From an uncultured Pseudomonadales bacterium (GTDB taxonomy: Bacteria > Patescibacteriota > Microgenomatia > UBA1400 > UBA1396), in NCBI GenBank assembly GCA_964511175.1, contig CAZEEI010000004.1, positions 27,401 to 91,400 on the forward strand: a stretch of 64,000 nt of DNA, in the 5' to 3' direction. Positions 10,822-48,577 of the stretch are shown piece after piece. The notes below the pieces were generated by a model. That model had not been told where the DNA came from and made no database searches. It saw only the letters and a program-made list of their open reading frames with translations. The position numbers and the translations under genes were made by a program. How positions within the stretch are numbered: the stretch's first letter is position 1; each line of letters begins with the position of its first letter.

Positions 10822-10892
10822 ATTTACCATAACTTGATCTTGCATTCTCTCTGGTGTTCGTTATGATGAAGCCAGCACTTTAAGGACACCTT

Positions 10893-12573: not shown

Positions 12574-15402
12574 ATGACGACCATGTCGGCCGAGCTCACC
12601 ATCGATTTTAGTCAGCGCCAGAATTTGCCTGATTTAGAAGAGAAAGTTCTTGATTTTTGGGATGATATTAAGGCTTTTGACCGTTCGGTTAAGGAGCGCC
12701 CGGCTGATAAACCCTATATTTTTTACGATGGTCCGCCTTTTGTTACCGGCTCACCCCACTACGGCTCACTGTTGGGTTCAATCACCAAAGATATCATTCC
12801 GCGTTTCTGGACCATGCAGGGTTACCGCGTTGAACGACGGTGGGGTTGGGATTGCCATGGCTTACCAATCGAAAACATGATTGAGCAGGAACTGGGCATT
12901 AAAGACGGCAAACGCGGTATTGAACGCCTAGGCGTGGCTAATTTCAATAACGCTTGCCGAGCGGCGATTGCCGAGTTTGACGCCACTTGGGAAATAATTA
13001 TTCGCCGCATCGGCCGCTGGGTTGATTTCAAAAACAGTTACAAAACTATGGATTTTGACTTTATGGAGTCGGTCTGGTGGGGCTTTCAAAAACTGCACCA
13101 AAAAGGACACATTTACGAAGGGCGTAAAGTTATTTTGTACTGCCCCCGCTGCGCCACTCCGCTGTCTAACTTCGAAATTGCCATGGATAACAGTTACGTT
13201 GATGTCACCGAAGTAGCCAATACTTACAAATATGCGGTAAAGGGGCAAGATCGCACCTTTTTACTCGCTTGGTCGACTACGCCTTGGAATAAGTTGGCCA
13301 CACCGGCTTTAGCGGTTAACCCTGATCTAACCTACGTCAAAGTTGAGCAGGGCGACGCGTTTTATATCTTAGCTCAAACGCGTCTGGATCACCTGAAAGA
13401 CCAGCCTTACACGGTAATTGATTCTTTCCCCGGCAAACAATTAACCAGTTTAGAGTTCGAACTGCATTACGACTTTTACCCCGAGCGTGAGGGAAGACGA
13501 GCTGGTGTGATTGTGGCGGATGAGTTCGTCACTGCCGATACCGGTACCGGCGTGGTCACTTTGGCTATTTACGGTGAAGACGACTACCGCGTCATGCAGG
13601 AAAACAATCTTCAGCTGGTGGAGCACGTCGATGAAGAAGGAAAGTTAAAGCCGGAGGTTAAACCCTGGTCTGGCCTGGGTATCCTAGAGTCTAATCCGCT
13701 GGTCAATGCTGATCTGGCACAGCGGGGATTGGTTTATCGTGAGGAGCCGCACGTCCATAGTGTGGCCACTTGTTACCGCTGTCACACGCGGTTGTATTAT
13801 GCACCGCTACCTGCCTGGTTTATCAACGTCCAACAGCTAAAGCCGCAATTGCTGGCTGATAATGAAAAAATTAACTGGTATCCAGCCTATCTCAAGCACG
13901 GCCGCTTTGCTAAAGGAATTGAGTCAGCACCAGACTGGAATATTTCCCGCTCACGTTACTGGGGAACACCCATGCCCGTTTGGCGAGCGGCAAACGGCCA
14001 GCAACGCATCATTGGTTCGGTGACGGAATTGCAGGAATGGGCGGTCGAACCAGAACAAGCGGCTAATCTAACCGATATCCACCGTGAGTTTGTTGACGAC
14101 ATCGAGGTATGGGTGGATGACCAACGTACCCGAAAGGGACGCCGTATTAAAGAAGTCTTTGACTGTTGGGTGGAATCTTCCAGTATGCCTTTTGCGGCCG
14201 ACCATTATCCCTTCGCCAATCAAGCCAAATTTGAACAAAGCTATCCGGCTCAATTCATTTCCGAATACATCAACCAAACCCGTGCCTGGTTTTACACAAT
14301 GCACGTTATTTCCGTAGCTTTATTTGGAGCACCGGCTTATCTTAACGCCCACAACACCGGCATTATTTTGGCCGAAGACGGTTCCAAAATGAGCAAATCG
14401 AAGAAAAACTACCCCGATCCAGTGGAGTTGTTGAATCGGGATGGCGCCGATGCCTTGCGCCTCTACCTTGCAGCCAGCCCGGTCATGAAAGCGGAAAATC
14501 TTGCTTTTGTAGCTGATGACGTCAGTAATATGCGCAAACGCGTCTTAGGCATTTGGTGGAACGTTTTCCTGTTTTACCACAACTACCGGCCAGCCAATTG
14601 GCAACCCCAGACACCCCAGCCTCAACACGTCATGGATCGCTGGGTTTTAGCCCTACTAGAGCAAGCCAAAGCCGAAATTACGGCCGCCTTCACTAGTTAT
14701 GACGTGTCAACTGCCGCCCGAGCGATTATGACTCTCATCAACGAAATATCAACTTGGTACCTGCGCCAGTCGCGGGATCGTCTGCGCCAAGAGGGGGATC
14801 ACGCTTGCTGGGATACTTTCCACTACGTTTTGACCCAATTAGCCTTGCTTGCCGCACCGATTGTGCCCTTCCTGAGTGAGACCACTTACCAACACTTAAC
14901 ACCCGAGTCCGATTCGGTACATTTGGCAAATTGGCCCCAGACCATATCTACTTACTTAGATGCAGACCTCTTAACCGCCATGGCTACTATCCGACCAATA
15001 GTAGAACAAGGACATGCCCAACGCAAAACCGCGGGCTTAAAAGTACGCCAGCCCCTCGCCAGCCTAAGCGTAAAGAGTATGATGCCGGCACCCAATCCGG
15101 ATGTATTAGCAATTGCCGCCCAAGAACTCAATGTTAAGGTCATCGATTGGCGAGTAATAGATGAAGCTAATCTGGCCGAAATAAACCTGGACACTAGACT
15201 AACACCAGAACTAGAAGCCGAAGGTAAAGCGCGAGAAATTGTGCGTACCGTACAGCAACTTCGTGCCGACCAAAACGTGCCGCTAACCGCCAATATTGAG
15301 CTCACTCTGCCGGAGTGGCCACAAGAATATGAAGGATATATCAAGCAAAAAACAAGGGCGGTGCGTATTAGCAAGGGTGAGACATCTTTGCTAGTACCTT
15401 AA
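12574..15402 (+). CDS. ileS: Isoleucyl-tRNA synthetase, type 2 (eukaryote/archaea-like)
   Basis: Class I motifs PPFVTGSPHYGS (HIGH-variant 'HYGS') and KMSKSKKN. The CP1 editing region and tRNA-binding C-terminus are present. 942 aa. Confidence 0.85.
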   Translation: MTTMSAELTIDFSQRQNLPDLEEKVLDFWDDIKAFDRSVKERPADKPYIFYDGPPFVTGSPHYGSLLGSITKDIIPRFWTMQGYRVERRWGWDCHGLPIENMIEQELGIKDGKRGIERLGVANFNNACRAAIAEFDATWEIIIRRIGRWVDFKNSYKTMDFDFMESVWWGFQKLHQKGHIYEGRKVILYCPRCATPLSNFEIAMDNSYVDVTEVANTYKYAVKGQDRTFLLAWSTTPWNKLATPALAVNPDLTYVKVEQGDAFYILAQTRLDHLKDQPYTVIDSFPGKQLTSLEFELHYDFYPEREGRRAGVIVADEFVTADTGTGVVTLAIYGEDDYRVMQENNLQLVEHVDEEGKLKPEVKPWSGLGILESNPLVNADLAQRGLVYREEPHVHSVATCYRCHTRLYYAPLPAWFINVQQLKPQLLADNEKINWYPAYLKHGRFAKGIESAPDWNISRSRYWGTPMPVWRAANGQQRIIGSVTELQEWAVEPEQAANLTDIHREFVDDIEVWVDDQRTRKGRRIKEVFDCWVESSSMPFAADHYPFANQAKFEQSYPAQFISEYINQTRAWFYTMHVISVALFGAPAYLNAHNTGIILAEDGSKMSKSKKNYPDPVELLNRDGADALRLYLAASPVMKAENLAFVADDVSNMRKRVLGIWWNVFLFYHNYRPANWQPQTPQPQHVMDRWVLALLEQAKAEITAAFTSYDVSTAARAIMTLINEISTWYLRQSRDRLRQEGDHACWDTFHYVLTQLALLAAPIVPFLSETTYQHLTPESDSVHLANWPQTISTYLDADLLTAMATIRPIVEQGHAQRKTAGLKVRQPLASLSVKSMMPAPNPDVLAIAAQELNVKVIDWRVIDEANLAEINLDTRLTPELEAEGKAREIVRTVQQLRADQNVPLTANIELTLPEWPQEYEGYIKQKTRAVRISKGETSLLVP

Positions 15403-17104: not shown

Positions 17105-17413
17105 ATGAACTACGCTATTATTCAACTCGCCGGCAAACAGTATCGTCTGTCTGAAGGGGACACGCTAACGGTTGACCGCCAGTTTGAAGACACCATTAAA
17201 ACTGACGCTGTGCTTTTACTGCACAATGATCAGGACATTAAAGTAGGCACTCCCAAAGTGGCCGGCGCTACCGTTACTTTGCAAAAAGTCGAAGATATCC
17301 GCGGTGATAAACTGCGTGTTTTTAAGTTTAAGGCTAAATCCCGCTACCGCCGCACCCAGGGCCATCGCCAGGAGCAGTCGGTACTAAAGGTAACTAAAAT
17401 CGCACGCTCATAA
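17105..17413 (+). CDS. rplU: 50S ribosomal protein L21
   Basis: MNYAIIQLAGKQYRLSEGDTLTVDR... with a C-terminal K/R-rich tail. 102 aa. Confidence 0.9.
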   Translation: MNYAIIQLAGKQYRLSEGDTLTVDRQFEDTIKTDAVLLLHNDQDIKVGTPKVAGATVTLQKVEDIRGDKLRVFKFKAKSRYRRTQGHRQEQSVLKVTKIARS

Positions 17414-17432
17414 GTGCTAGACTAAGATCGTC

Positions 17433-18575
17433 ATGTCAACCTACCTCTTTTTTCTGGGGCAAACCACCGAGCTATGTTTGGCGGAATTGCAGGCCGTACT
17501 CCATCAGTGCCAGCAACCGTCGGCCGAACTGCTGACGCCGCTGATTGCCCAAGTTACTACTGACACCGAGCTGGACGCAGTTGCTCTCCAGAATCGGTTG
17601 GGTGGAACGGTTAAAATAACCCAAGTACTTGAGTCTCTGCCGATAGTCGAGCCAGAGATAGTAAGCGAACATATTCTCACCATTTTGCGCCAACGCCGGC
17701 CGCACCGTTTTGTGGTAGCCGAACAAGGACGGGACCACCGCGAACCGCTGCGGGTTGAAGAATTAAAAGCCACACTCGTGCGCGAAGGACAAAAGATTTC
17801 CTACAAACAAACACCGCGTTCGGGGGCTAACGCCGCCTTACTCAAGTCCAGCAAAGCTTTAGAAATACAAGTAATCCAGACTGCCACTGCCATTATTTTA
17901 GCGGTCACTTTGGCCTGGCAAGATGTAGATGTTTGGAGTTTGCGGGACGTCGGCAAACCTTACCGTGACCGCAAGCGGGGTATTTTACAACCTAAAATTG
18001 CCCACATGATGTTGAACTTAGCTCTGGGTGACCGCAACCCACGGGAACAAGTTATGTTGGACCCTTTCTGCGGGAGCGGCACGATCTTAATCGAAGCTAC
18101 CATGTTAGATATTCCGGTGGTGTTGGGTGCCGATTTAGCTTTAGAGGCAGTGACTCAGTCCCGCGCCAACCTGGAATGGTGGCAAGAACAACTGGTTGAG
18201 TCGTTTACCAGTGAATTTGTGGTCAGCCCCGTTGAGCGTTTAGAAAAAACATCCTTCCATCACCAACCCACTTTAGTGGTGACCGAACCCTTCCTCGGCA
18301 AATTAACACCACATCAAGAAGACTTGGCGGGAATTATCCGTGGCCTGGAAAAAATGTACCGTGGTATGTTCCGCTCCTTGGCTCGCCTGCTTCCAGCTGA
18401 TGGTATGGTCGCCATTATTTTACCGTCTTACCAAATCGGTCAACGCGTAGTCACCGTGGAAAACACTTTGCGTCACGCCACTGAGCTGGGCTTCACGCTG
18501 GTTGATGGTCCCTACCGTGCCGGCCGGCCTAATGCCGTCACCCAACGTAACGTCTACTTATTCACTAAGGCTTGA
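17433..18575 (+). CDS. Putative RNA (N2-G/N6-A) methyltransferase, UPF0020/Trm11/RlmL-like Rossmann fold
   Basis: Motif I DPFCGSGTILIEA and a downstream acidic motif (VTEPFLGK) typical of THUMP-associated RNA methyltransferases. It sits between rplU and rpmA. Confidence 0.5.
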   Translation: MSTYLFFLGQTTELCLAELQAVLHQCQQPSAELLTPLIAQVTTDTELDAVALQNRLGGTVKITQVLESLPIVEPEIVSEHILTILRQRRPHRFVVAEQGRDHREPLRVEELKATLVREGQKISYKQTPRSGANAALLKSSKALEIQVIQTATAIILAVTLAWQDVDVWSLRDVGKPYRDRKRGILQPKIAHMMLNLALGDRNPREQVMLDPFCGSGTILIEATMLDIPVVLGADLALEAVTQSRANLEWWQEQLVESFTSEFVVSPVERLEKTSFHHQPTLVVTEPFLGKLTPHQEDLAGIIRGLEKMYRGMFRSLARLLPADGMVAIILPSYQIGQRVVTVENTLRHATELGFTLVDGPYRAGRPNAVTQRNVYLFTKA

Positions 18576-21902: not shown

Positions 21903-21977
<75 letters not shown>

Positions 21978-22016
21978 CATTTCGATACTTGTAGACAAAT
22001 AATTTTTAAATTGTCT

Positions 22017-22622
22017 TTAATTATCCACACTTTTTAGAGATTCAAACTTCTCCGCAGCTGCATTCATCAAAGGTGCAATTTCAACCACCCTTTCTAGCGG
22101 GTCTTTTAAAACTATATCGAGTGTGTGATTCAACAGTACGAAGTTCGATCCAAGTCGCGTGATGATCTCACGGCGCTTCACATCGCCCCCGTTTTCAAAC
22201 TCCTGACGGGCTTCTCTCACTCACTTCTTCTTAAAAAAATCAGCAAGTGGTGACGGAAGTTGAGGCTGAGGACTTGGCTGGCCAGCAATTCTTAGTATTT
22301 GATCAAGGGTCATGGAAGGTGGCGCAACCACTGGTGCCAATCTAAACACGGATTTAATCTTGTTATTGATCCAATCCCAAGCACTTTTGTTTAAAACACC
22401 ATTAGCTCTCGAGAGATCTACTTTAACAATAAGAAATAGTAATCCAGGATTTCTAACAATAATTCCATCAGCGAGTACTTTTTCTGAAAGATGAGAACTA
22501 ACAATGTAAACGTTGGGCAAGTAATGCCACCAATCTGATATCGGCAGATTAATCATGGTGTCATGTATCTGTTCATCAGTGTAATGTGGCTGCTGGTGGT
22601 TAAAAACAACTAAGTAGTCCAT
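22017..22622 (-). pseudogene. About 201-codon ORF interrupted by a single in-frame TGA (ORFs 22221..22622 and 22017..22220 are contiguous in one frame)
   Basis: The 133-aa ORF ends ...FFKKK-TGA. The very next codon is GTG, which opens the 67-aa ORF in the same frame. It has a Pro-rich linker (PSPQPQLPSP). TGA is a genuine stop elsewhere in the window, so this is a nonsense-interrupted gene or a readthrough candidate. Confidence 0.35.
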
Positions 22623-22624
22623 AA

Positions 22625-22969
22625 CTATTTTTTCTTCTGCACTTCGAGGGGTTGGTAAAGTTCCACATACTCTTGACTAGCAACTTGAGGGTTCTGCTTA
22701 TCACCTAAGAGTTTTATGTCTAGTTTCCTCATTTCTAACGTCTGTCTCTCTGACCAAAGCCTATCTGGCTTGAACACCCATAGTAGAACAAGAACAGTAC
22801 CCAAAACTAATGATGAATACATCCAAATCATTCCAAATCCCATCCAAACAGAGGCAGTGCTGAAAATAACATAAAACCAAATGACTATATATGCAGGACT
22901 GGATCGGGTGACAACTTGCACTAACGCACCAAAGGCTTGTAGGGATAGCTCGTTGTCTGCTTTCTCCAT
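22625..22969 (-). CDS. Small two-TM membrane protein (island gene)
   Basis: 114 aa with two hydrophobic helices (AYIVIWFYVIFSTASVWMGFGMIW / LVLGTVLVLLWVF). AT-rich. Its stop is 2 nt from the next ORF's start. Confidence 0.4.
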   Translation of the reverse strand: MEKADNELSLQAFGALVQVVTRSSPAYIVIWFYVIFSTASVWMGFGMIWMYSSLVLGTVLVLLWVFKPDRLWSERQTLEMRKLDIKLLGDKQNPQVASQEYVELYQPLEVQKKK

Positions 22970-23044
22970 ATGAATGGTATTATTATAGTATCAAACTAAT
23001 CAAAAATATACTTGATACTACACAAGTAAGTTAAATATTACTAG

Positions 23045-23968
23045 GTGAAAGTTTGTATGGCAAACAAAAGGAACTGGTTTATTGGAATTCAAAAAAGAAA
23101 TCCAGATGATGGAAAAGTCTCCTCTATATCACAGCAAAGATCAATCTCTGAAGGTGAAAAGAATAAACTTTCAAGTAACCTTGCTTTGCTAAACGAAGTT
23201 ACACAAGGATCACCCTATCATCGTTTGAATGAAAAGTATGAGGGTTTTAGTCGCCATATAGTGAAAATTATAGAGGACTCAAGAACAAAAAGATTTAATC
23301 CAAAAGATCTAGAGAGCATCTTTGAAAAATTAGACGACTTACTTTCTGCATTTAGAGCTTTTGATGATAAAACTAGCCACAAAATTTCATTAAGATATGG
23401 TAAGCAATCAAAGGAACTCTCCATTTTTAAAGAAGCTTTATCGTTTGAATTTGATAATGTATTTGCATACAGATTGTGTTCCCAGCTTAGAAACTATAGT
23501 CAGCATGCGGGCTCTCCAATAACAAATATAAAATCGCATAGTTACCTTAAAAATGATCAACCAAAATCTACTTTGAGTATCATTATGGATAGTGAGAAAT
23601 TACTAGAAGGCTATTCAAAATGGCAATCCAGAGTAAAAGAGGAGCTTAAAAAAATCAGCGGTGCTATCGATCTGGTACTCATCCTTGATGCATTAATGGC
23701 CTCATGCTCGAGAGCTTATTCTAAGTGTCTTATCAGCCAAGAGAAAGAAATTAATCAAGCTAACCAGGAAGTAATCTCTACTATAGGAGAGCTAAAAAGT
23801 GATGAATTTCCAGCAATAATGGAGTTTATCATATCTGAAAGCAATCCTAAGGAAGAGATACGGCTAAATCTTCAACAAATTAATATGTATGAACTATTGC
23901 AGATTCCAAGCTTGCTTCAGAAAGCACATTTCATCGTAGACTCCACTAGTATGAATAGGCAAAAATAA
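23045..23968 (+). CDS. Hypothetical protein with an R-x4-H (HEPN-like) motif (island cassette gene 1)
   Basis: 307 aa and AT-rich. Motif ...SQLRNYSQHAGSP. Likely start at ATG 23057, which is preceded by AGGTGA. No other recognisable domain. Confidence 0.4.
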   Translation: MKVCMANKRNWFIGIQKRNPDDGKVSSISQQRSISEGEKNKLSSNLALLNEVTQGSPYHRLNEKYEGFSRHIVKIIEDSRTKRFNPKDLESIFEKLDDLLSAFRAFDDKTSHKISLRYGKQSKELSIFKEALSFEFDNVFAYRLCSQLRNYSQHAGSPITNIKSHSYLKNDQPKSTLSIIMDSEKLLEGYSKWQSRVKEELKKISGAIDLVLILDALMASCSRAYSKCLISQEKEINQANQEVISTIGELKSDEFPAIMEFIISESNPKEEIRLNLQQINMYELLQIPSLLQKAHFIVDSTSMNRQK

Positions 23969-23973
23969 ATAAT

Positions 23974-24397
23974 ATGAAAGATCAAATCTTACTTTACCTG
24001 CAAATGTGTGATGCAGAAAAAGTTCAAACTCTGCAGCGGGGCATGAATTACCGGCTAAACCCTGACTACTCGGTTATTCTCATGTCTCAAAGAACAAACG
24101 CCCCATACAAAGTTTTTCGTTTTATTCTTGAGGAGACGGAGATTGGCTTCAAGAATAATCACCTCCATGAGAACGTTCTTAAACCTAGATCAAGAGTCAT
24201 TCCTACTGATGTGAAAAAACAGTTTGGGAAAGAGACGAAGCAGGTGCGTGATTTGTGGAGCCACAGACGAGCTACATTTTGACCATGACTTACCTTATTC
24301 AGGAGGCGACGCGAGCATAAGTGCAAGCAATGTTAAAATCCTCTGTGCAAGACATAATTTAAGCAAGTCAGATAAAATAAGCTATGAATCAAACTAA
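23974..24397 (+). pseudogene. HNH endonuclease, disrupted by a +1 frameshift at an A6 run
   Basis: Frame-1 ORF 23974..24282 (102 aa) continues after a shift at gtgAAAAAAcag (~24214-24219) into frame 2. That frame reads ...RCVICGATDELHFDHDLPYSGGDASISASNVKILCARHNLSKSDKI*, the canonical HNH CxxC...H-x-D-H...N...H-N motif. Frame 2 has no start codon of its own. Confidence 0.55.
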
Positions 24398-25292
24398 TAA
24401 TGATGAACTCTCCTCAATTAAGCCAAGTGAAGAAGGCTTGGCTCTAATGGGTTATGCTTCTGCTCTGAGACATAGATATTGGCCTCACTATACCTGGAAT
24501 ATTCAAACGAAGCAGCTTAAAGATTTCGATAACAACGATAGTTACTTTGCCCAAAATAATATTGATATAAAGCATATAAAAACCACTTTTCCAGATCTAT
24601 TTGACAAAATAAATTCTAGTTTCTATCACTTGCAAGTGCTCAAGGAAAACGAGGAGTTGATAACAGAAGTGGGAAGAAAAATAGCCCAAGCAGGTCAGGC
24701 AGACCTTCCAGCCGGAATGTTAGGGATAGCTGGCATGCTTTACGAACCAATTAATTATGAATATGAAGCTATGTTGGTTACATTAAAAAGTGCAATAGAC
24801 ATAATGGTTACTCTAGTTGCACCAATTTGTAGCTTATCTACTAACGTGGATACTCTTTCTCGACTGCTTAAAGAATCAAGGAAAACTGACAAGCCAAATG
24901 AGTTTCATAAAAAAATGAAAGCACTTTTGAAAGAAGAAAAATTCTTACCACTTTTTGAAGAGTTTCAATGGAACGGAAATACTCGATCTAAAAGAGATCA
25001 TGCGGTACACAGAGGTTCGCTTTCAACAGGAACAATAAATATCCAATACACTTCGAACGCAGATCATATTGGCGTACTAAAATCTAAAGCTGTGCCAGTA
25101 GGCGAAAAAATGACAGATATTCACACAACACCTGATCTTGATCAGTACTGCACATCACTTTTCTATTTAACTTGTGATTTCTTAGTGGATGTATTACAGC
25201 TTGTGGTAAACCGAAATCTAATACGGGGACAAAAAATGAGCATCTACGAACATCAGGTTTCATTGGCTAAAACGAAACAACCGTTGTCGTAA
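24384..25292 (+). CDS. Hypothetical protein with an R-x4-H (HEPN-like) motif (island cassette gene 3)
   Basis: 302 aa and AT-rich. Motif ...NTRSKRDHAVHRGS. Its start overlaps the HNH 3' end. Confidence 0.4.
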   Translation: MNQTNNDELSSIKPSEEGLALMGYASALRHRYWPHYTWNIQTKQLKDFDNNDSYFAQNNIDIKHIKTTFPDLFDKINSSFYHLQVLKENEELITEVGRKIAQAGQADLPAGMLGIAGMLYEPINYEYEAMLVTLKSAIDIMVTLVAPICSLSTNVDTLSRLLKESRKTDKPNEFHKKMKALLKEEKFLPLFEEFQWNGNTRSKRDHAVHRGSLSTGTINIQYTSNADHIGVLKSKAVPVGEKMTDIHTTPDLDQYCTSLFYLTCDFLVDVLQLVVNRNLIRGQKMSIYEHQVSLAKTKQPLS

Positions 25293-25564
25293 ATGGAAGC
25301 AGTAGAAGCATTTTCTTAATTTACAGCTAATGAAACCACTGCATCTCTAGTACAATAGTAGTTAAACAGGGTTTGAATAGAATCTCGAACTCTACCCCAA
25401 GTTTTTTCTTAAGTAATTTTTTGAACTTTAAATACAAGTTGGAATCATTTCGTTAAAATAGTCATATGTTCATTTTAATTAAGTTCTGACTACAACTGTA
25501 TTCCGAAATGTAAGCAGTTTATACATACATTGACTCATTGTAGGTTGTAGGCTACAATTTACAC

Positions 25565-25870
25565 ATGGAAGTTCTGAAAACGGATGCTTTCGACAAATGG
25601 TTAAGAAAATTAAAAGATCGAAAAGCAAAAGCTCGCATCCAAGTTCATTTGAACCGCTTAATTGAGGGCAAATTAGGAAAATTAAAGCCAGTCGGAGAAA
25701 GTGTATTCGAAAAGAAAATCGATTATGGCCCTGGATACAGACTCTACTTTATTAATCACCAAGAAAATGTTGTTGTACTGCTTTGCGGTGGAGATAAATC
25801 AACACAACCAAGAGATATTCAACAGGCAAAAATCATCGCTAAAGAACTAAGAGAACAAATGAAAGGATAA
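25565..25870 (+). CDS. higB: Type II toxin, RelE/ParE superfamily (HigB-like 'addiction module killer protein')
   Basis: 101 aa. ...KAKARIQVHLNRLIEGKLGKLKPVGESVFEKKIDYGPGYRLYF...VVLLCGGDKSTQPRDIQQAKIIA matches the conserved pattern of the HigB-2 / TIGR02683-like toxin. The toxin lies upstream of the antitoxin, as in hig loci. Confidence 0.7.
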   Translation: MEVLKTDAFDKWLRKLKDRKAKARIQVHLNRLIEGKLGKLKPVGESVFEKKIDYGPGYRLYFINHQENVVVLLCGGDKSTQPRDIQQAKIIAKELREQMKG

Positions 25871-25872
25871 AC

Positions 25873-26145
25873 ATGAAACTATCAAAATATAACACCACCG
25901 ATTATTTAAAAACTGATCAAGATATTAAAGAATATCTCAATGCTTCTTTTGAAACAGGAGACAGCAAACTTATCGCCAGGGCATTAGGTGATGTTGCTAA
26001 AATTAAGGGTATGAGTAAGATTTCTAAAGCTACTAAGCTGGATAGAAGTAGTTTATATTACTCTTTAACCGAACAGGGTGATCCCAGACTTAGTACAGTA
26101 ACAAAACTAATCGAAACCTTCGGCTATTCGGTTTCGGTGAATTAA
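25873..26145 (+). CDS. higA: HTH antitoxin (HigA-like 'addiction module antidote protein')
   Basis: 90 aa, starting 3 nt after the toxin stop. HTH region ...GMSKISKATKLDRSSLYYSL... typical of the HigA family. Confidence 0.65.
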   Translation: MKLSKYNTTDYLKTDQDIKEYLNASFETGDSKLIARALGDVAKIKGMSKISKATKLDRSSLYYSLTEQGDPRLSTVTKLIETFGYSVSVN

Positions 26146-26157: not shown

Positions 26158-26469
26158 ATGGGCGCAATGACCGAAATTAACTCCCTAGTTCGCTTTCCAG
26201 GAGATTTTAATTTTCAGACTCTACAAAAGGGTCTCCTGGTTGATCTAACACTTGAGCGGGAAAGGATTCTGCCGCTGCGCATCGCCTTATTGTATTTTCA
26301 CACCGATTGGAATTTTTTAGGTTACTGCCGCGTTTTATCACTCCGCCAAAGTGAGGGTAAAACTTACCTCAAGGTCGAAGTGTTAACTGTCTTTTCCCAA
26401 GAAGAACAAAAAGTTTACAAAAACAAATTTGTCGAAGCGGGTAGATTCACTGGAGAAGCTAAGTATTAG
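26158..26469 (+). CDS. Hypothetical protein
   Basis: 103-aa ORF following higA. No motif recognised. Confidence 0.3.
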   Translation: MGAMTEINSLVRFPGDFNFQTLQKGLLVDLTLERERILPLRIALLYFHTDWNFLGYCRVLSLRQSEGKTYLKVEVLTVFSQEEQKVYKNKFVEAGRFTGEAKY

Positions 26470-26936
26470 GTTCGGTAAATCTCAACCACTCCCGTGTCGC
26501 AGTGTAAGAAAACCAGTCTAGCTGGACCCTGGTCTAAATCCTCACCCACTATTTTAATGCCAGATTCTTGTAGCTTTTTCCTAACAATTGGTGATTTTCT
26601 CCGACTACCTACTAAAATATACCCCTCCCCAGAGAGGGTCGCTTCAAGATCTTGTAAACCCGAGTCGCCAGAAATATACAGGGCGTGTAATAGGGTATCA
26701 ATCACTTTCTCTGGTCTCATCTCCTCAGGAGCGGTGGAGAATCCGGAAATATGAGCCAACATACCCATCTTTCTACGACGATCGTAAAGAGTAATTACTA
26801 AGCAAGTGCCAACACCATCTGTCCCAATTAAATCGCTTTTTCTGCCAATTTTATAATCATCTTGATCAACAAACTTATATCTTACATGATCGTGAAAACC
26901 ATCAACTGTTCGGAATCTCTCTAAATTTGTACCCAT
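26466..26936 (-). CDS. CheD-fold (glutamine deamidase-like) protein, orphan
   Basis: ...GTDGVGTCLVITLYDRRRKMGMLAHISG... resembles the CheD Cys/His signature (G.C[VI]A[VI].L.D......G.[AM]H.M). No chemotaxis genes are present in the window. Confidence 0.35.
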   Translation of the reverse strand: MGTNLERFRTVDGFHDHVRYKFVDQDDYKIGRKSDLIGTDGVGTCLVITLYDRRRKMGMLAHISGFSTAPEEMRPEKVIDTLLHALYISGDSGLQDLEATLSGEGYILVGSRRKSPIVRKKLQESGIKIVGEDLDQGPARLVFLHCDTGVVEIYRT

Positions 26937-29433: not shown

Positions 29434-30072
29434 TTAATTCAAAAATTGTGACCATAGGGCAAATGCCGATTGGGCTTCGCTCTTATTTACTACCACCGTT
29501 AACTCGGTGTAGGTTGAAATAATTTCCACAATGTTAATACGTTGGGTTGCCAAAACGGCCAATAAGACGTACATCGTGTTGGGAATGTCCAGATAAGAAG
29601 GAGAAAAACGCACAATAATGCCAACCGCATCCGTCAGAACCGTTTTGGGCTGAGCTTGCATGTGCTGGATAATCGCTGCCTGATAACGCTGAGCCGCTAC
29701 CACCGTAATTTCATCAACGCCTTGAGTAATCGTAAAAAAATCATTAGGTACCAGAGCAATCGCCTCCGCCATGGTATTTAGCAAGCGGAGAGTGGTTTGG
29801 GTTTTATCAAAACTCAGATCACATAGCGAAGTTTTGAGATTAAGATCACTAACTACTACTTTTGGCCGCAGAGAGGTAGTTGATTGTCTGGCCAAGCGTG
29901 ATAAAGCAACTACAATACTTGCTGATTTAACCTCTTTTTGCGTTTGCGCTTCCACGGCCGGTCGTAATTGCCTGGCCAGGGCACTATAGTTCACTATGCC
30001 AAGGTGCAAGGCTTCATTTAGTAGGTCGGAGGAGAAAATTAGTTTTTTAACCGCGTCATTTATTTTCAACAT
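29434..30072 (-). CDS. Hypothetical protein, possibly a tandem ACT-like regulatory fold
   Basis: 212 aa with two beta-alpha-beta-like repeats (IVVALSRL..., IVEIISTYTELTVVV). No catalytic motif. Confidence 0.3.
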   Translation of the reverse strand: MLKINDAVKKLIFSSDLLNEALHLGIVNYSALARQLRPAVEAQTQKEVKSASIVVALSRLARQSTTSLRPKVVVSDLNLKTSLCDLSFDKTQTTLRLLNTMAEAIALVPNDFFTITQGVDEITVVAAQRYQAAIIQHMQAQPKTVLTDAVGIIVRFSPSYLDIPNTMYVLLAVLATQRINIVEIISTYTELTVVVNKSEAQSAFALWSQFLN

Positions 30073-30193
30073 ATTAACTTTTTGTTATATTTCTAACATT
30101 TTTTCTTAAACAGTACTATATCACTAATTATTTGCTAGCTTGAGCCGCATGCGTAAAATAACCACTGGTTACGATTAGGATTAGGAGGTAACC

Positions 30194-30373
30194 ATGAGTT
30201 TTATTGGTAGTACTTGTCAAATCTGCGACGCTACCGTGCCTCTGCCCAGCGATGTACAGGTTTCAGAAATGTTAACCTGTCCCGATTGCGGCTGTAGTCT
30301 GGTAGTGGCGGAAATTTCTCGCGGTGGTGTGCGTTTAGAGGAAACGCCAGAGGTAGAAGAAAATCAAGAATAG
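30194..30373 (+). CDS. lysW: LysW/ArgW-like amino-group carrier protein (59 aa; below the ORF-track length cutoff)
   Basis: MSFIGSTCQICDATVPLPSDVQVSEMLTCPDCGCSLVVAEISRGGVRLEETPEVEENQE has two CxxC pairs forming a zinc ribbon and an acidic C-terminal tail ending in Glu. A strong RBS (AGGAGGT) lies 4 nt upstream. Confidence 0.5.
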   Translation: MSFIGSTCQICDATVPLPSDVQVSEMLTCPDCGCSLVVAEISRGGVRLEETPEVEENQE

Positions 30374-30378: not shown

Positions 30379-31656
30379 CTAACGATGGATTAAACCATTT
30401 CCCGGCTTAAGGACGCGTTCTAGTTTACGGAAGTCACGTAGTAAATATTCTTTAGATACTACCAGGTAGGAACCTTGATTCACTTCCGAATCGATAAATT
30501 CCATTTTTACCTCTCTCAGTCTGGGAAATAAAGCAAATAAACACCAAATTGCCAAGGTATTGCGTTCTAGGTAAAGATTCCAAAATAGACTCTTCCAAAC
30601 ATCAAAGTAAGTGAGTGAAAGTTGGGAATTTTCAAAATGATCTTTCGTTAATTTTGAAACTACTACTTTGCGACCGGGATTATGACGTCGTTTTTCACCT
30701 AAATGCCAAAGACCTTGATCGAGTTCGCCTAGACGCATATCAAAAATTAATTGCCAGGTTAATTGTGTCGCATCAGGTGCTAAAACTAAATCTTGGGTAT
30801 AACCAAGTAGGTTAACTTCTAAATGATGATCTTCGATTACTCTTGCCTCCTGGATTTTACGGCTAATGCGATGACGACCCACATCTGTTTTATCAGCAAT
30901 AATCAGTGCTAACGCTTCTGGACCAAAAAAGGTACGTAGGGTGATCAGCACGCGCTCGATAGTCACTTGATCCTGAGAATTATCCTCTAAACTAATGCTT
31001 GGCCAACACTGACGCAGCAAAGCTAAAGCCACTGTCTCATGATGTAGTTCAATAGCACGCCTAATTCGTCGCCATTGAACGGGATCGTGCTTTAATCGCG
31101 GAAACAAGTCTAACAAAATTGAAGGTGAAATAAACGGATGGCGTGGCCGGCTAAAAATATTGCCTAAATCATGACCCCAGGCGGCAATCGTCGTACGGCG
31201 CTGAGTATTAACATCAATCGCTGGCAAACTGTTTGGTGGGGCAGATAGATCCTGATTCCACGAAGGGGTGGCTTGTGCTAATAAAGACTGTGACACTCGA
31301 TCTACATAGCTAATGTGCTGGCGGTCGTGGCGATTGAAACCTAAATCACCCATGCCATCAAGAGAATGGCTAGCTGCTTCATATAAGGGACTTAACCACT
31401 GATCACAAAACTGAGTTATATCTGCCGGTGCTAGATTTAATAAATCTAATTCCGGGAAAGATGGGTAGTGCCATTTACCTTCGGCGGTAAATAAAGAACT
31501 AATTAACGCTGGACCGGCGAGAGTTTCTTCTTGCAGCCAAGTTAGAATATCGGTAAAGTGATCCACACCTTTACTGGGATGATGAACCATTAAAGTCTGT
31601 TCCCGTGCTTGCGCCGGAAAGAGTGTTTTGGCCTGTCGCAATTCCTGATTAAACAT
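30379..31656 (-). CDS. Hypothetical protein, possible HD-type metal-dependent hydrolase
   Basis: 425 aa. His/Asp clusters (WGHDLGN, AIELHHETV). No other motif. Confidence 0.3.
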   Translation of the reverse strand: MFNQELRQAKTLFPAQAREQTLMVHHPSKGVDHFTDILTWLQEETLAGPALISSLFTAEGKWHYPSFPELDLLNLAPADITQFCDQWLSPLYEAASHSLDGMGDLGFNRHDRQHISYVDRVSQSLLAQATPSWNQDLSAPPNSLPAIDVNTQRRTTIAAWGHDLGNIFSRPRHPFISPSILLDLFPRLKHDPVQWRRIRRAIELHHETVALALLRQCWPSISLEDNSQDQVTIERVLITLRTFFGPEALALIIADKTDVGRHRISRKIQEARVIEDHHLEVNLLGYTQDLVLAPDATQLTWQLIFDMRLGELDQGLWHLGEKRRHNPGRKVVVSKLTKDHFENSQLSLTYFDVWKSLFWNLYLERNTLAIWCLFALFPRLREVKMEFIDSEVNQGSYLVVSKEYLLRDFRKLERVLKPGNGLIHR

Positions 31657-41922: not shown

Positions 41923-42660
41923 TCAGGAATTTTTCTTCCAGGGTACGGCTAACAATATCTTGGAAAAAAAATCCTCTTCCATGGGGATATATAACTTCTT
42001 TAACTCTTCCGGCGAAGGCGGCTCTTCTTGAAATTGAATACGAGGAGCTTCCGTTATATGAGTCAGTGGAACCTGCTCATTACTTTCACCCATCACTAAG
42101 CAGGCGGCGGACGCCAGCGCATCAACAACGTTGATGAGTACCCACGTTGACTCGCCAAAAATATCCGGTTGAGCAGGCTGATCAATAACGCCCAAGAAAC
42201 CACAATGAGCAATACCAATACCGGTCGCTCCCTGCCGGAGGGGAGTGGAACGGCTGTCGCAAATTATTACCCCGATTTCTCGGCGATGAAATTTATGACG
42301 CAAATGATCCCATATTTGATTTACTGTTTGCTGGGGATTTTTGGGCCAAAGGGTAAAATATCCTGCTGAATTGCCAGTATCCACTCCCGCCGATCCAACC
42401 AAGATATTGTTTTTGATGGTAAGTACCACCCCATACTTATTTTGTTCAGCTGGCAGGTAATAGTCTGCTTCTTGGTAAGCTAACTGCTGTTTGGTGGTAG
42501 TAGATTTAGAGACTACTTGGCCTTCGCATAGAGAAACAACCTTGGCAGTTACTACCAGAATGGACCGCTCTGGGAGATCCTTAACATAGCGGTCGATAAA
42601 CTCAATGACTGTACAGCTGCCGGCATTGACGCGATCGGTTTGGATAGGGCTAATCACCAT
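41923..42660 (-). CDS. CofE-like gamma-glutamyl ligase family protein (F420-0:gamma-glutamyl ligase fold)
   Basis: VVTAKVVSLCEGQVV...GVDTGN...ICDSRSTPLRQGATGIGIAHCG is a pattern characteristic of CofE/FbiB N-domain homologs. The start is set at the ATG at 42658-42660, downstream of tRNA-Leu. The longer ORF 41923..42792 would read through the tRNA. Confidence 0.45.
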   Translation of the reverse strand: MVISPIQTDRVNAGSCTVIEFIDRYVKDLPERSILVVTAKVVSLCEGQVVSKSTTTKQQLAYQEADYYLPAEQNKYGVVLTIKNNILVGSAGVDTGNSAGYFTLWPKNPQQTVNQIWDHLRHKFHRREIGVIICDSRSTPLRQGATGIGIAHCGFLGVIDQPAQPDIFGESTWVLINVVDALASAACLVMGESNEQVPLTHITEAPRIQFQEEPPSPEELKKLYIPMEEDFFSKILLAVPWKKNS

Positions 42661-42683
42661 AGCGAAAAAAACTTCCTTATTTG

Positions 42684-42767
42684 TGCCGAGAAGAGGACTT
42701 GAACCTCCACGGGGTTGCCCCCACACGCCCCTGAAACGTGCGCGTCTACCAATTCCGCCATCCCGGC
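42684..42767 (-). tRNA. tRNA-Leu (anticodon CAG), long variable arm
   Basis: The reverse complement reads GCCGGGA-TG-GCGGAATTGGTAGACGC-G-CACGT-TTCAGGG-GCGTG-(variable arm)-GGAGG-TTCAAGT-CCTCT-TCTCGGC-A. Confidence 0.8.
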
Positions 42768-42847
42768 TCATCAACAGGGGCAAGTATATCATTTTTGGAT
42801 CTTTCCGTCATGGACAAGAGACGGCTGAACCAGTATAAACAAAGAAC

Positions 42848-43375
42848 ATGGAACCAATCGCTACCGTTGCTTATCGGTTTTGTCCGGTGTGTGGTGCGGC
42901 TTATGCTGCCACTCAGCATAATGAAGTAAATAAGACTTGTACAGTTTGTGGTTTTGTTTTATACGAAAACCAAAATGCTACTGTGGGAGCCATTATTGTC
43001 TACCAAAATAAAATCCTGCTCATCCGGCGCGCAGTTGAGCCACACCAAGGTACCTGGGACATACCTGGCGGCTTTGTGGAACCCAACGAATCGTGCCGCC
43101 AAGCCATTGAGCGGGAAGTAAAAGAAGAAACCGCTCTAAGTCCAAAAATCGTGCAAGAGCTGGGTTCTTACGGCCCCACATGGTATGTTTACCAGGGCAA
43201 AGGCAGTTACAACACCGATTTTTACTACCTAATGGAATCGGCTACCGACCAGTTTACTGTGGGTGATGATGCCGCCACCGGACAGTGGTTCGCCTTGGAT
43301 CAACTACCTCAGGAAGATGAAATTGGTTTTCCCTCTGTGCGGCGCGTACTGCAAGATTTAACGGCAATTTTATGA
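42848..43375 (+). CDS. Nudix hydrolase with an N-terminal zinc ribbon (NudC-like architecture)
   Basis: CPVCGAAY...CTVCGF zinc ribbon followed by the Nudix box GGFVEPNESCRQAIEREVKEETAL. Confidence 0.65.
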   Translation: MEPIATVAYRFCPVCGAAYAATQHNEVNKTCTVCGFVLYENQNATVGAIIVYQNKILLIRRAVEPHQGTWDIPGGFVEPNESCRQAIEREVKEETALSPKIVQELGSYGPTWYVYQGKGSYNTDFYYLMESATDQFTVGDDAATGQWFALDQLPQEDEIGFPSVRRVLQDLTAIL

Positions 43376-44292
43376 TCAAACAATTATTTGACATTAACGT
43401 AGCAACTTACCGCTGGCGTGAATCGCTAGTGAAAGAGGAAGTTGAGGCCGCTAATTTGGTCGTCCTACCCGGAAAACAGGTTGGGGGAATTTATCATTCA
43501 GAGTCGATGATTTGGCGAGGGGATTTACTAGGCCAAACATCACCAGAATTGTTTATTCGTTCCAAAAGGGAAAGAAAAAATATTAATTTTGCCCGCAACT
43601 TTTTTCTTACTCAGGGATATTCTCTACAAACTCATTTCGTTACTACCAAACTGGAAGTCGAACAATTTTATGAGTTGTACCAAAAAACCACCTTACTGCG
43701 CAAAAGCTCCGACCAGCATAAAAAACGCGTTAGAGATTATTTTGATCCGGATATTTTGGCAAAAAAGCAGGCGGTAGGGGAACAAGTGATACTGATCGGT
43801 TTATATCAGGGTGATCAACTTGTTTCCGGACTGCTGTGTTTCACCGAAAAAGATCTGCTTAAAGTCGGATATGGCGCCAAGGAACTTTTTCCTGAGGTGC
43901 GAGGCGGCATTGGGGGATTACTGGAATTAGAACTATTACAATTTGGCATCACTAATAATTATCGTTCGATTAGTCACGGCCGGTCCACTAACCCGGCCGG
44001 TTTAATTGACCGTGCCGGTATTTTTGAATTCAAAACTCGTTATGGTTTTTCGCCTTATCCCAGTGGACCCTGGCAGACCACCTATTTGCGATCGGCCGAT
44101 TTTGTTCTTGGCGACGTTATCTTTCTAGGCCTTAATAATGGTCAACTGGGCCTTACCGTGCTTACCACCTCGACTGAAACCGAAATTATTGCCAACAAAT
44201 ACCAAAGTTTGGCCACCAACCTTGTTTCGGTAATTAATATTAATGATCATGTTAAAAATGCCAGACAGCATCTTGATCGTTTGTTACAATAA
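43372..44292 (+). CDS. FemABX-like / Acetyltransf_6 GNAT-fold protein (paralog 1)
   Basis: 306 aa. The C-terminal GIFEFKTRYGFSPYP resembles the FemABX 'G.Y.FK..FG' motif. It is clearly paralogous to the next ORF (shared LIGLYQGDQL, NPAG[LV]I, F[EQ]FK[TA]R.GF..YP). Confidence 0.4.
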   Translation: MIKQLFDINVATYRWRESLVKEEVEAANLVVLPGKQVGGIYHSESMIWRGDLLGQTSPELFIRSKRERKNINFARNFFLTQGYSLQTHFVTTKLEVEQFYELYQKTTLLRKSSDQHKKRVRDYFDPDILAKKQAVGEQVILIGLYQGDQLVSGLLCFTEKDLLKVGYGAKELFPEVRGGIGGLLELELLQFGITNNYRSISHGRSTNPAGLIDRAGIFEFKTRYGFSPYPSGPWQTTYLRSADFVLGDVIFLGLNNGQLGLTVLTTSTETEIIANKYQSLATNLVSVININDHVKNARQHLDRLLQ

Positions 44293-44301
44293 GGAAACCC
44301 T

Positions 44302-45180
44302 ATGATCACCAATCTGTTCGATGTCACTATTGCTCATTACCATAATTTAAACGAGGTTAATTTGGACGAGATAACCAAAGCGGACATTGTTCTCTGTCAG
44401 AAATATCAAGCTGACGGTATCTACCACCCTGAGTCAATCCGCTGGCTGGGCGAAGTGGGTAGTGTCGATCCGGGTGATTTTATTTTTTCTTCCTCTCTGC
44501 AGAAGGAGCTTCCTCAAATCGAAGCGTATTTCCCCGATCACGGCTATGAGATCAAGATTAAAGAAATCAACGAGGCAGAGTTTGAACAATTCGAAAAATT
44601 GTATGAGCAACTGGCGGAAAGCAGAGATCGGTTCGTGATGTACGCCGACCGCTTGCGGGTCAAACAGAATTTGGCCGTCGGTTTGCCGGTGTTTTTGATC
44701 GGTTTATACCAAGGCGATCAACTCAATTCCGGCTATATTGCGTTTAAACAAAAGGACCGCCTCATGGTGGCTTGGAGTGCCGTGGCTAGTTTCCCTGACA
44801 CTAGATACAGCCCAAGCGTAGCTCTCATTGCAGCTATGGTACGTTTTGCCCACCAGCAAGAATTAACCACCATTAGTTTTGGTTCCGGCTTTAATCCGGC
44901 TGGGGTAATTTCCAAGACGGGGCTTTACCAATTTAAAGCACGGTGTGGCTTCACGGCCTATCCGGAAGGAGCGTGGCGATCCTTTTTTCTGCTAAATCCT
45001 GCTATTTTGTCTGCCGATTTAATTTTTCTGGGCATCACTGGCGACCAGCTGGCTCAAAGATTCTTAACCAATACTAGCCAGGACGGATCAGCTTACCGTA
45101 CTAAAGGAATTGGTATGGTGGTGGCCGAATCGCTGTCTGAACACGTTACCAAAGCCCGTAAACTGTTTGGGCTTACCTAG
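44302..45180 (+). CDS. FemABX-like / Acetyltransf_6 GNAT-fold protein (paralog 2)
   Basis: 292 aa and a tandem duplicate of the previous ORF. GLYQFKARCGFTAYP. Confidence 0.4.
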   Translation: MITNLFDVTIAHYHNLNEVNLDEITKADIVLCQKYQADGIYHPESIRWLGEVGSVDPGDFIFSSSLQKELPQIEAYFPDHGYEIKIKEINEAEFEQFEKLYEQLAESRDRFVMYADRLRVKQNLAVGLPVFLIGLYQGDQLNSGYIAFKQKDRLMVAWSAVASFPDTRYSPSVALIAAMVRFAHQQELTTISFGSGFNPAGVISKTGLYQFKARCGFTAYPEGAWRSFFLLNPAILSADLIFLGITGDQLAQRFLTNTSQDGSAYRTKGIGMVVAESLSEHVTKARKLFGLT

Positions 45181-45316: not shown

Positions 45317-46276
45317 TTGCCTCCCGCTGCTTTGCGGCACTATAATAGCGGTATGCGACATTGGCTACTACTATCTTTGGTCTTCATGATTGGTTGCTGG
45401 TTTTCGCCAGCGCCTGCTTTGGCTCAAACTTTACCCACTGATACCCTAATGGAGCTGGTCGCCAGCAACGCCGCTAAGGCAGCCACGCCGGCGGCTCAAG
45501 TAGTTGAAAAAATCGAACAAAAAGAAGCCCAAGACATTACCCAAACCACACCGCAGGTGAAAAGCCGTTTGGCACGTTTTTTGGACGAAAATCCCGCCGA
45601 TCCGCCGGCTTGGCATAATTTTATCCAGCACGCCCTTCGCCGAGCCGTCAACCAGGGCGTACCAGCCAACATTTTAGTCTTACTCCTGCTCTTTCCGGTT
45701 ATTGCCTCGTTTATTGCTATTTCCCGCCATTTTATCGGCCTGGAGGGCTTTGGCATTTATGTTCCCGCGGTACTGTCGGTGGCCCTGCTCTCTACCGGTA
45801 TTATTTCCGGCATCCTGCTTTTCCTCCTCATTATCGTCACTGCCAACCTTAGCCGGGAGGTAATTAAACGTTTCCGCCTACAGTATCTGCCACGCACCGC
45901 CTTGCTGCTTTGGGCTGTTTCCCTAATGGTGTTTGCGTTGCTACTATTTTCCCCCCTGCTTCTTAACCTAGGCATTGATTTGGTTGCCTTAAGTATTTTC
46001 CCGATTCTGGTTTTGATTTTGCTTTCGGAAAACTTTATTGACGCCCAGTTGTCTACTACCCAATCGCGCGCTCTGGAATTAACTTTAGAGACCATCGTGT
46101 TGGCGGTATTTTCTACTTTGTTCGTCCGCACCGAGTTTGTGCAGGAATTCGTGATTCTGCATCCAGAAATTACCATCATGAGCGTACTGGCCGCCGATCT
46201 CATGGTGGGACGCTACACCGGCTTGCGTGTCAGTGAATATTTGCGTTTTAAGAATATCCTTGACCCGGAGGAATAA
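45317..46276 (+). CDS. Signal peptide plus a 7-TM-like integral membrane protein; first gene of the membrane/ATP-grasp/QEGLA trio
   Basis: N-terminal signal-like segment, an Ala-rich periplasmic region, then about 6-7 TM helices (GIYVPAVLSVALLSTGIISGILLFLLIIV...). It is translationally coupled to the ATP-grasp gene. Confidence 0.5.
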   Translation: MPPAALRHYNSGMRHWLLLSLVFMIGCWFSPAPALAQTLPTDTLMELVASNAAKAATPAAQVVEKIEQKEAQDITQTTPQVKSRLARFLDENPADPPAWHNFIQHALRRAVNQGVPANILVLLLLFPVIASFIAISRHFIGLEGFGIYVPAVLSVALLSTGIISGILLFLLIIVTANLSREVIKRFRLQYLPRTALLLWAVSLMVFALLLFSPLLLNLGIDLVALSIFPILVLILLSENFIDAQLSTTQSRALELTLETIVLAVFSTLFVRTEFVQEFVILHPEITIMSVLAADLMVGRYTGLRVSEYLRFKNILDPEE

Positions 46277-46277
46277 T

Positions 46278-47555: not shown

Positions 47556-48577
47556 AGTCTAAAGCGAATTTAACTCTACTACAAAAAATTCTCCCGTCTA
47601 ACCTCGCTGCCGAAAAACGCAAATTCCTGTTTGATCCTAAATATAATCCTCAGTTTGAGTACCCAGGCGAAATTGATTTGGCAGAATGGAATCAATATGG
47701 ACCGGTAGCGGATCAATATTTGGTCGCGGCTAAACAAATTATTGATGCCGTTATCCATCGCTGGGGTCAGGAAGAAAAATACTTGGACGAAACGGGTGGT
47801 CGTTTTTTGTCACAGGAAGAAGTGCGGACAAGGGTATTGGCTTATCTCAAAGATAATGGTTTAGCTGATGAAGTTATTGTTCAGTTCTCCAGTAAACAAA
47901 TCGCGCGGACGATGATGGACCGCAACGTCTTTAGTGTCCAACTGCCGGTACGCTACCGCGAATTTGATCTACCCAGCGTATTGGATCACGAAGTAGGTAC
48001 ACACTACCTGCGGCGTATCAACGAACAACAGCAGCCCTGGCGCGGTAAACACCGGGCTTTTGGTTTTGGCAGCAATGCCGGACAGGATGATCCCAACCCC
48101 AACCATTATCTCGAAACCGAAGAAGGTTTAGCTGTATTAAATTACTATCTCACTGCACCAGACAAGCATCTCTGGATGTCCGCCTTGTATTACTACACCG
48201 TTTGGCTGGCTAGCCAACTCTCCTTTGCCGCTTTGTTTCACGAGCTACGTTCTTATGTCGAAGACCGGGAAAGACGCTGGACGCTTTGTTTAAAGACGAA
48301 ACGGGGTTTACGTGACACCTCGTTGCCAGGCGCTTTCACCAAAAATCAACTTTACTTCTCCGGTGTGATTAAAGTAGCGCACTGGTTCAACCAAAACGAC
48401 TTCGCTGTAGAAGATCTTTATCTGGGCAAGTTGGCTTTAAATGATATTCCGCGCGCCAAACAACTGTCGGCCATAACCAAATTGCGGCTACCTCAATTCG
48501 TGGCCGACCGGGCCGCTTACCGGCAAAGCATCCAAGCAGTGATTAGCGTTAATAAGTTAAACGGACTGGTCAGCTAA
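47552..48577 (+). CDS. DUF1704 / 'QEGLA-motif' protein (predicted metallopeptidase-like)
   Basis: Contains HEVGTHYLR (HExxH-like) and ETEEGLAVLNYYL (the family-naming [QE]EGLA motif). It is found beside RimK-like ATP-grasp genes. Confidence 0.55.
   Translation: MKSKANLTLLQKILPSNLAAEKRKFLFDPKYNPQFEYPGEIDLAEWNQYGPVADQYLVAAKQIIDAVIHRWGQEEKYLDETGGRFLSQEEVRTRVLAYLKDNGLADEVIVQFSSKQIARTMMDRNVFSVQLPVRYREFDLPSVLDHEVGTHYLRRINEQQQPWRGKHRAFGFGSNAGQDDPNPNHYLETEEGLAVLNYYLTAPDKHLWMSALYYYTVWLASQLSFAALFHELRSYVEDRERRWTLCLKTKRGLRDTSLPGAFTKNQLYFSGVIKVAHWFNQNDFAVEDLYLGKLALNDIPRAKQLSAITKLRLPQFVADRAAYRQSIQAVISVNKLNGLVS

Follow-up and report, generated by a model that had tools for sequence, protein, structure and literature searches.

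The amino-group carrier proteins LysW and ArgW (Thermus thermophilus 3wwl/3wwn, Sulfolobus tokodaii 3vpb, Thermococcus kodakarensis 5k2m) are about 55–60 amino acids long and have a zinc ribbon with four cysteines and an acidic extension ending in glutamate. LysW homologues are also used outside primary lysine synthesis, as carriers in actinomycete secondary metabolism, where they are encoded together with LysX, LysZ and LysY homologues in biosynthetic clusters of the DADH/vazabitide type. Further relatives are found in the lysW operons of CPR bacteria (the Microgenomates group). The functional signature of LysW/ArgW is the EDWGE motif with the terminal Glu, and EDWGE is recognised by the GSWGR motif of LysX/ArgX (PMC10433800).

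We consider here a LysW-like gene in a 64 kb stretch of DNA, all of which was analysed and which is referred to below as the window. The product resembles the known LysW/ArgW proteins in size, in the four-Cys zinc ribbon and in the acidic extension with its terminal Glu, and it matches them both in sequence profile and in predicted fold. Unlike them, it has EENQE in place of EDWGE and scores below the equivalog cutoffs, and its gene has no adjacent lysX or argX and no lysZ, lysY, lysJ or lysK in the 64 kb. The CPR operons contain its nearest sequence relatives, the same divergent ACT-domain partner and a similar intergenic layout; in contrast to them, the window retains only the head of the locus, that is, the ACT gene and lysW, while the enzyme genes and the tail motif are gone. 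Nothing of a cluster of the DADH/vazabitide type is present in the window. What is new is a tail-variant, operon-less LysW homologue, and this novelty is modest.

The LysW-like protein has the sequence MSFIGSTCQICDATVPLPSDVQVSEMLTCPDCGCSLVVAEISRGGVRLEETPEVEENQE. Its cysteines form two CxxC pairs, C8/C11 and C29/C32, and the C-terminal end, EETPEVEENQE, comprises the acidic linker EETPEVEE and the terminal Glu. An earlier note on this DNA had described a 59-aa ORF with two CxxC pairs, an acidic Glu-ending tail and an AGGAGGT ribosome-binding site, and both the sequence and the ORF reading bear this out. The same note had considered the gene to be missed by the ORF track; in fact the exact protein is present in the NCBI and Logan gene calls, with the Pfam family PF21344 precomputed for it. 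Upstream of the Shine-Dalgarno sequence there is a candidate promoter of the sigma-70 type, recognised by its match to the consensus (Table 1). In the intergenic alignment with loci L002, L004 and L017 its boxes coincide with the TTGACA/TATAAT-like boxes 5' of lysW. No riboswitch was found near the gene, the Rfam matches being tRNAs only, and the plasmid similarity search gave no match.

Table 1. Features of the window and of related lysW loci (positions are those of the window or of the locus named in the first column)
Locus	Feature	Coordinates	Strand	Remarks
Window	Serine-recombinase-like ORF	63-1121
Window	tRNA	21904-21977
Window	Low-GC region	22000-26000		GC 0.36-0.37, about 0.46-0.51 in the flanks
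Window	HI1420-type antitoxin-like gene	25873-26145
Window	Protein with weak CheD matches	26466-26936	-	156 aa
Window	Divergent double-ACT gene	29434-30072	-	212 aa; N-terminal four-helix domain, then tandem ACT domains
Window	TGTTA-N6-TAACA motif	30083-30098		11-26 nt 5' of the ACT gene start; position conserved in related loci
Window	Promoter-like sigma-70-like site TTGCTA-16-TAAAAT	30132-30159	+	consensus match
Window	Shine-Dalgarno AGGAGGT	30183-30189	+	4 nt before the ATG of the LysW-like ORF; direct sequence reading
Window	LysW-like zinc-ribbon ORF	30194-30373	+	59 aa; ATG start
Window	Convergent orphan gene	30379-31656	-	425 aa; stop 5 bp after the LysW-like stop
Window	F420-0:gamma-glutamyl ligase (CofE-like) family protein	41923-42792	-
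Window	Two FemAB/GNAT-like genes	43372-45180		before the trio
Window	7TM_transglut, RloB-like gene	45317-46276	+	trio
Window	RimK-like ATP-grasp gene	46227-47555	+	trio; ATPgrasp_ST; TIGR02291 240.9 bits; marginal local LysX match only
Window	MATCAP/QEGLA carboxypeptidase-like gene	47552-48577	+	trio
L002	Order after lysW			lysX-lysY-HCS-lysZ-lysJ-225aa
L002	Operon-terminal protein	10565-11242
L004-6	Order after lysW			same as L002 (lysX-lysY-HCS-lysZ-lysJ-terminal gene)
L004	Operon-terminal protein	13477-14139
L007	Order after lysW			lysX directly after lysW; read from the ORF list; contig ends
L014/15	Order after lysW			lysX-lysY-HCS-homoaconitase L/S-HICDH-lysZ-lysJ-183aa
L014	Operon-terminal protein	17237-17788
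L016	Order after lysW	126-5669		lysX-lysY-PALP-SHMT-lysZ
L020, L021	Order after lysW			lysX-lysY-lysZ-lysJ-214/221aa; EDWGQ tails
L020	Gln-tailed lysW	10001-10174
L021	Gln-tailed lysW	10001-10183
L020	Operon-terminal protein	14050-14694
L021	Operon-terminal protein	14022-14687

The family assignment is clear at the level of the domain. Pfam PF21344 (Zn_ribbon_LysW) matches the protein with 35.3 bits (E=9e-9), above the gathering score of 27, and phmmer against the PDB retrieves the LysW chains of T. kodakarensis and T. thermophilus. The AlphaFold2 model, for which an alignment of 30 sequences was used, has a pLDDT of 81, and its best six fold matches in the PDB are all LysW chains, with TM-scores on the query of 0.61–0.79. 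The globular zinc ribbon with its CxxC...CxxC arrangement is present, as is the acidic C-terminal extension ending in Glu. Judged by sequence profile and predicted fold, the product is a true LysW homologue. The curated NCBIfam models are less generous: NF041070 (LysW/ArgW) yields 52.7 bits (E=3.3e-14) with a cutoff of 75, and TIGR01206 yields 24.5 bits (E=1.8e-5) with a cutoff of 53.2. The profile match anticipated in the earlier note does exist, but its score is below both curated cutoffs.

The main deviation is in the tail. When 1.84 billion representatives were searched exhaustively with phmmer, 52 matches resulted, the best of them at about 50% identity, and a profile search of a 5.8-billion-cluster collection produced 6305; the tails were counted in the 169 short homologues that were fetched. 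The ending is EDWGE in 140 of them and EDWGQ in 24, with single instances of EDCGE, EDYGE and EHWGE, one C-terminus that looks frameshifted (P0035, which lacks the tail) and one EENQE, that of the window protein. DWG is present in 164 homologues, and a further three depart from it at a single position; the sole intact member of the set without an EDWGE-type motif is the window protein. In it, ENQE replaces DWGE, NQ standing for DWG, and the tail is one residue shorter, which amounts to an in-frame loss of three nucleotides and several substitutions relative to the canonical form. The other eight invariant or near-invariant positions (four Cys, E25, V38, E56 and the terminal Glu) are all kept. 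Hence all three lost positions fall in DWG, and the chance of this, calculated post hoc for three losses placed at random among 11 positions, is 1/165. The core without the tail scores 69–73 bits against the HMMs of the canonical members, that is, at the 12th–20th percentile, the median being 81–83.

The earlier note had treated an acidic tail ending in Glu as the hallmark of LysW. The acidic arm and the terminal Glu are indeed there, but the defining EDWGE is absent (PMC10433800), and although the homologues do share a conserved tail, it is the window protein that departs from it. Since two defining features of LysW were tested and neither was found, the product is not a bona fide LysW. What stands of the proposed LysW-like carrier is the zinc ribbon of the LysW family, confirmed by profiles and fold; what does not is the rest of the signature, as EDWGE is lacking and the scores stay under the curated cutoffs.

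No ortholog closer than 56% identity was found in the collections searched, including the metagenome scans with the LysW-like protein. Several other matches were discarded. Three long multi-domain proteins from the exhaustive search (P0005, P0021, P0043) are tandem zinc ribbons of a generic kind that lack acidic tails and are uninformative, P0011 is compositional noise, and L018 and L019 are spurious, since the unrelated contig that they match has no LysW-like ORF at that place.

The odd tail might be suspected to result from an error of assembly or sequencing at the 3' end of a normal lysW, the more so as both records with the EENQE tail may stem from one sample, SRR8925769. However, DWGE is encoded in no other frame near the 3' end, and a frameshift was therefore rejected as the source of EENQE; the in-frame loss of three nucleotides with several substitutions is not what a homopolymer slip produces. 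Moreover, an artefact could not account for the missing lysX, whose place is filled by a long intact convergent gene. We regard this explanation as scarcely credible.

The closest homologues, at 42–56% identity, come, where the source is named, from CPR bacteria: Roizmanbacteria, Gottesmanbacteria, Microgenomates and Magasanikbacteria. Seven independent related lysW loci were inspected (L002, L004–6, L007, L014/15, L016, L020, L021), L007 being an unrelated MAG fragment found by scanning genome contigs with the ACT-protein alignment. The lysX gene directly follows lysW in all seven, starting no more than about 50 bp from the lysW stop, and GSWGR is present in six of the six LysX proteins checked. 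Beyond lysX, where the contig continues, lysY, lysZ and lysJ are found, whereas HCS and homoaconitase/HICDH may be present or not (Table 1).

In L016, a PALP (PLP-dependent) enzyme and SHMT are inserted in the lysW-lysX-lysY-lysZ set instead of homocitrate synthase, and this set may serve a carrier-protein route to some other amino acid.

Another atypical group comprises the EEDWGQ endings, about 14% of the LysW homologues (P0020, P0045, P0066, P0069, P0146, P0164, P0176 and others, and the proteins of L020 and L021). They have a terminal Gln at the position where the gamma-carboxyl of Glu normally carries the substrate. The carriers of L020 and L021 look functional, because they head complete lysW-lysX-lysY-lysZ-lysJ operons whose LysX bears GSWGR. 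Such sequences would imply that the Gln is deamidated before loading, or else that the substrate is attached by a different chemistry.

A conserved protein of 183–225 aa, with pairwise identity of 38–57%, ends the lysW operons. It has sub-threshold matches to class-II glutamine amidotransferases (GATase_4), and the copy in L002 starts with Met-Cys. No LysK-type (M20) gene was seen in the inspected lysW operon loci. One may speculate that the terminal protein, as an analogue of LysK of the Ntn-hydrolase type, releases the product, and that it could also deamidate the Gln-tailed carriers. These features of the CPR lysW operons, namely the terminal Gln, the GATase-II-like end gene without LysK and the double-ACT partner, may be of more interest than the main finding.

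None of the corresponding enzymes is encoded in the window. The LysX, LysY, HCS, LysZ, LysJ and operon-terminal proteins of L002 and L004, used as tblastn queries, gave no match in the 64 kb (all E>0.2), and the GSWGR peptide is absent from all its frames. The Pfam scan of 50 of the larger window ORFs, including all immediate neighbours, identified no enzyme of the lysine or arginine pathways; it revealed housekeeping genes, among them those for ATP synthase, MurG, FtsA/Z/W, IleRS, ParB, TypA, a P-type ATPase and an AlaRS-like protein. The absence of flanking lysX/Y/Z/J/K genes, already pointed out in the earlier note, thus extends by both tblastn and Pfam to the whole window, and the gene has no linkage there to LysX/ArgX, to LysZ, LysY or LysJ, or to LysK or an analogue.

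The place of lysX is taken by the convergent orphan gene. Its product belongs to no Pfam or NCBIfam family and forms a single-member cluster at 90%, and a scan of JGI metagenome contigs yielded no relative. As this gene sits where lysX starts in every inspected related locus, it defines the edge of the missing operon. The stand-alone state of the LysW-like gene is a derived one, the upstream ACT partner being still in place and the enzyme genes gone.

The protein could nevertheless be a working amino-group carrier, if LysX/Z/Y/J/K or their analogues were encoded elsewhere in the genome and had co-evolved to read EENQE. The zinc ribbon, the acidic linker and the terminal Glu are intact, the core HMM score is within the functional range, and so are the expression signals preserved. 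Further, the genes of the AAA pathway are scattered in some organisms, for example in Deinococcus. On the other hand, lysX adjoins lysW in every related locus, no intact homologue other than the window protein is more than one motif residue off in a set where DWG is nearly universal, and the EENQE variant is an orphan without a family of its own. In addition, several enzymes would need a joint change of recognition (PMC10433800). Hence we consider a working carrier improbable.

The gene divergent from the LysW-like one encodes tandem ACT domains in an arrangement like that of the aspartokinase regulatory subunit. Double-ACT proteins of 212–220 aa are encoded divergently 5' of lysW in five lineages; those of L002/3, L004–7, L017 and L021 have 214–220 aa and no Pfam family. 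The window protein is 37% identical to the L002 copy over 204 aa (E 5e-42) and 27–29% identical to the copies in L004–7, L017 and L021, and this sequence evidence identifies it as the orthologue of the gene conserved upstream of the lysW operons. At least 1800 proteins belong to the family, most of them from CPR, and they are often mis-named 'aspartate kinase'; ACT_7 matches 27 of 39 members.

The ACT proteins most similar to that of the window (38–46% identity) are encoded in loci L008, L009/10 and L011/12, and AtpD on L009 and L011/12 is 76–83% identical to the window AtpD. In none of these loci is lysW found beside the ACT gene, its neighbours being GreA and the ATP synthase operon, DapF, or an M20 peptidase. 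Since the nearest ACT lineages lack lysW, the lysW operon is patchy in the window's part of the tree, and this fits operon loss there. The window locus is an intermediate state, with the ACT gene and lysW and without the enzymes.

A palindrome-like element, TGTTA-N6-TAACA, precedes the ACT gene, and its core GTTA-N6-TAAC has no other match in the 64 kb. We downgraded its initial interpretation as an operator of the lysW operon, because one-mismatch versions precede ACT genes that have no lysW, and the left half corresponds to an extended -10 box (TGnTAnAAT). Probably it serves the ACT gene as an extended -10-like promoter element; possibly it is an operator. Elements of the form TGTTA-N6-T(A/T)ACA are conserved 0–25 nt 5' of the ACT-family gene start in many lineages, with sites equivalent to that of the window in L004, L007, L008, L009, L011 and L017. 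These sites have no Shine-Dalgarno sequence, and the element looks like an extended -10 promoter for leaderless or near-leaderless mRNA.

We think it probable, although far from certain, that the LysW-like gene was left stranded when its lysW operon was lost, and that its product can no longer serve as a carrier loaded by LysX. Rather than encoding a carrier for some new pathway, it is most likely what is left of a lysine-synthesis operon lost in a reduced genome, probably of the CPR/Microgenomates type. As the motif is absent from the protein and the ligase from the window, the protein would be neither loaded by LysX/ArgX nor handled by LysZ/Y/J, and hence would not act as an amino-group carrier. 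The ancestral locus would have had the ACT gene divergent from a CPR-type operon, lysW-lysX-lysY-(HCS)-lysZ-lysJ followed by the Ntn-hydrolase-like gene, and the loss of the enzyme genes would have left the first gene, lysW, stranded. In the simplest scenario the changed tail would be a scar left when a deletion or rearrangement took out the operon: from a left breakpoint within the last four lysW codons the frame would run three codons into new sequence and stop 5 bp from the neighbouring gene, so that the tail and the junction are perhaps one scar. An alternative is that the tail was altered under relaxed selection after the loss. If expressed, the protein would fold as a small acidic zinc ribbon without a carrier role.

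Simple decay, however, does not agree well with the facts that the core score, the eight invariant positions, the promoter-like site, the Shine-Dalgarno sequence and the start codon are all intact. An undecayed core with intact signals suggests either a very recent loss or continued selection for a role that does not need DWG.

Such a retained role, independent of LysX, could be that of a small acidic zinc ribbon acting as a partner of the ACT protein, or as a C-terminal substrate of the 7TM/ATP-grasp/MATCAP trio (Table 1), which by analogy with RimK acting on S6 might add residues to the acidic C-terminus or remove them. The changes affect only the motif recognised by LysX and leave the fold and the acidic tail as they were, the pairing with the ACT gene is retained together with the promoter-like elements, and a RimK-related ligase is encoded in the window beside a MATCAP/QEGLA carboxypeptidase-like protein. 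However, neither co-occurrence nor adjacency supports such a link, the ACT-family genes are widespread without lysW, the trio forms a unit of its own, related to a Pseudomonas operon (rlo) that includes no LysW, and there is no second EENQE-like tail among the 169 homologues. We consider a retained role of this kind unlikely.

The earlier note was right that the only RimK-like ATP-grasp found in the window is the one about 16 kb away, between the 7TM_transglut and MATCAP/QEGLA genes; many unrelated genes lie between the trio and the LysW-like gene. The suggested link between the two found no support: the enzyme matches TIGR02291/ATPgrasp_ST and not LysX, it belongs to an rlo-related three-gene set complete in itself, and the trio is absent from all related lysW loci fetched. 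The related rlo operon of Pseudomonas was studied genetically, with no LysW involved. In the RimK/ribosomal protein S6 and rlo-type systems the ligase acts on an acidic protein C-terminus, and this is the likeness to the present case, but neither genetic linkage to LysW-like genes nor co-occurrence with them was seen, so that the comparison is only an analogy. Loading of the LysW-like protein by the trio is thus a speculation.

The trio is followed by a LytR_cpsA_psr gene and preceded by two FemAB/GNAT-like genes, a context that suggests modification of cell-envelope peptides.

A stronger version of the same idea would be a re-tooled LysW mini-protein that retains the zinc ribbon and the acidic arm but has exchanged the motif read by LysX for EENQE, and whose C-terminal Glu is loaded or modified by an enzyme other than LysX, for example an ATP-grasp of the TIGR02291 type with a MATCAP-like carboxypeptidase, or which acts together with the ACT-domain sensor. 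We hold this to be very improbable; if true, a LysW-type carrier would be seen for the first time to work apart from the LysX/Z/Y/J enzymes. More generally, if the variant tail were functional, the use of LysW-type carriers would be widened beyond the LysX enzyme family. If, on the contrary, the gene is a stranded remnant, it provides a small example of pathway loss from a reduced genome, in which the carrier gene and its sensor-like neighbour outlive the enzymes. For annotation it is a caution that a Pfam LysW match and a terminal Glu do not make a working carrier.

Several other features of the window may be mentioned. A CofE-like family protein, a further glutamyl ligase, has no evident pathway around it; the genome appears to be of the CPR type. 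A 156-aa protein shows weak matches to the glutamine deamidase CheD (NCBIfam E 2.5e-9, far below the cutoffs), and no chemotaxis genes were seen near it. The low-GC region just after the tRNA gene contains several ORFs without a family and the HI1420-type antitoxin-like gene, and may be an integrated island. Finally, a serine-recombinase-like ORF is situated at the very beginning of the window.
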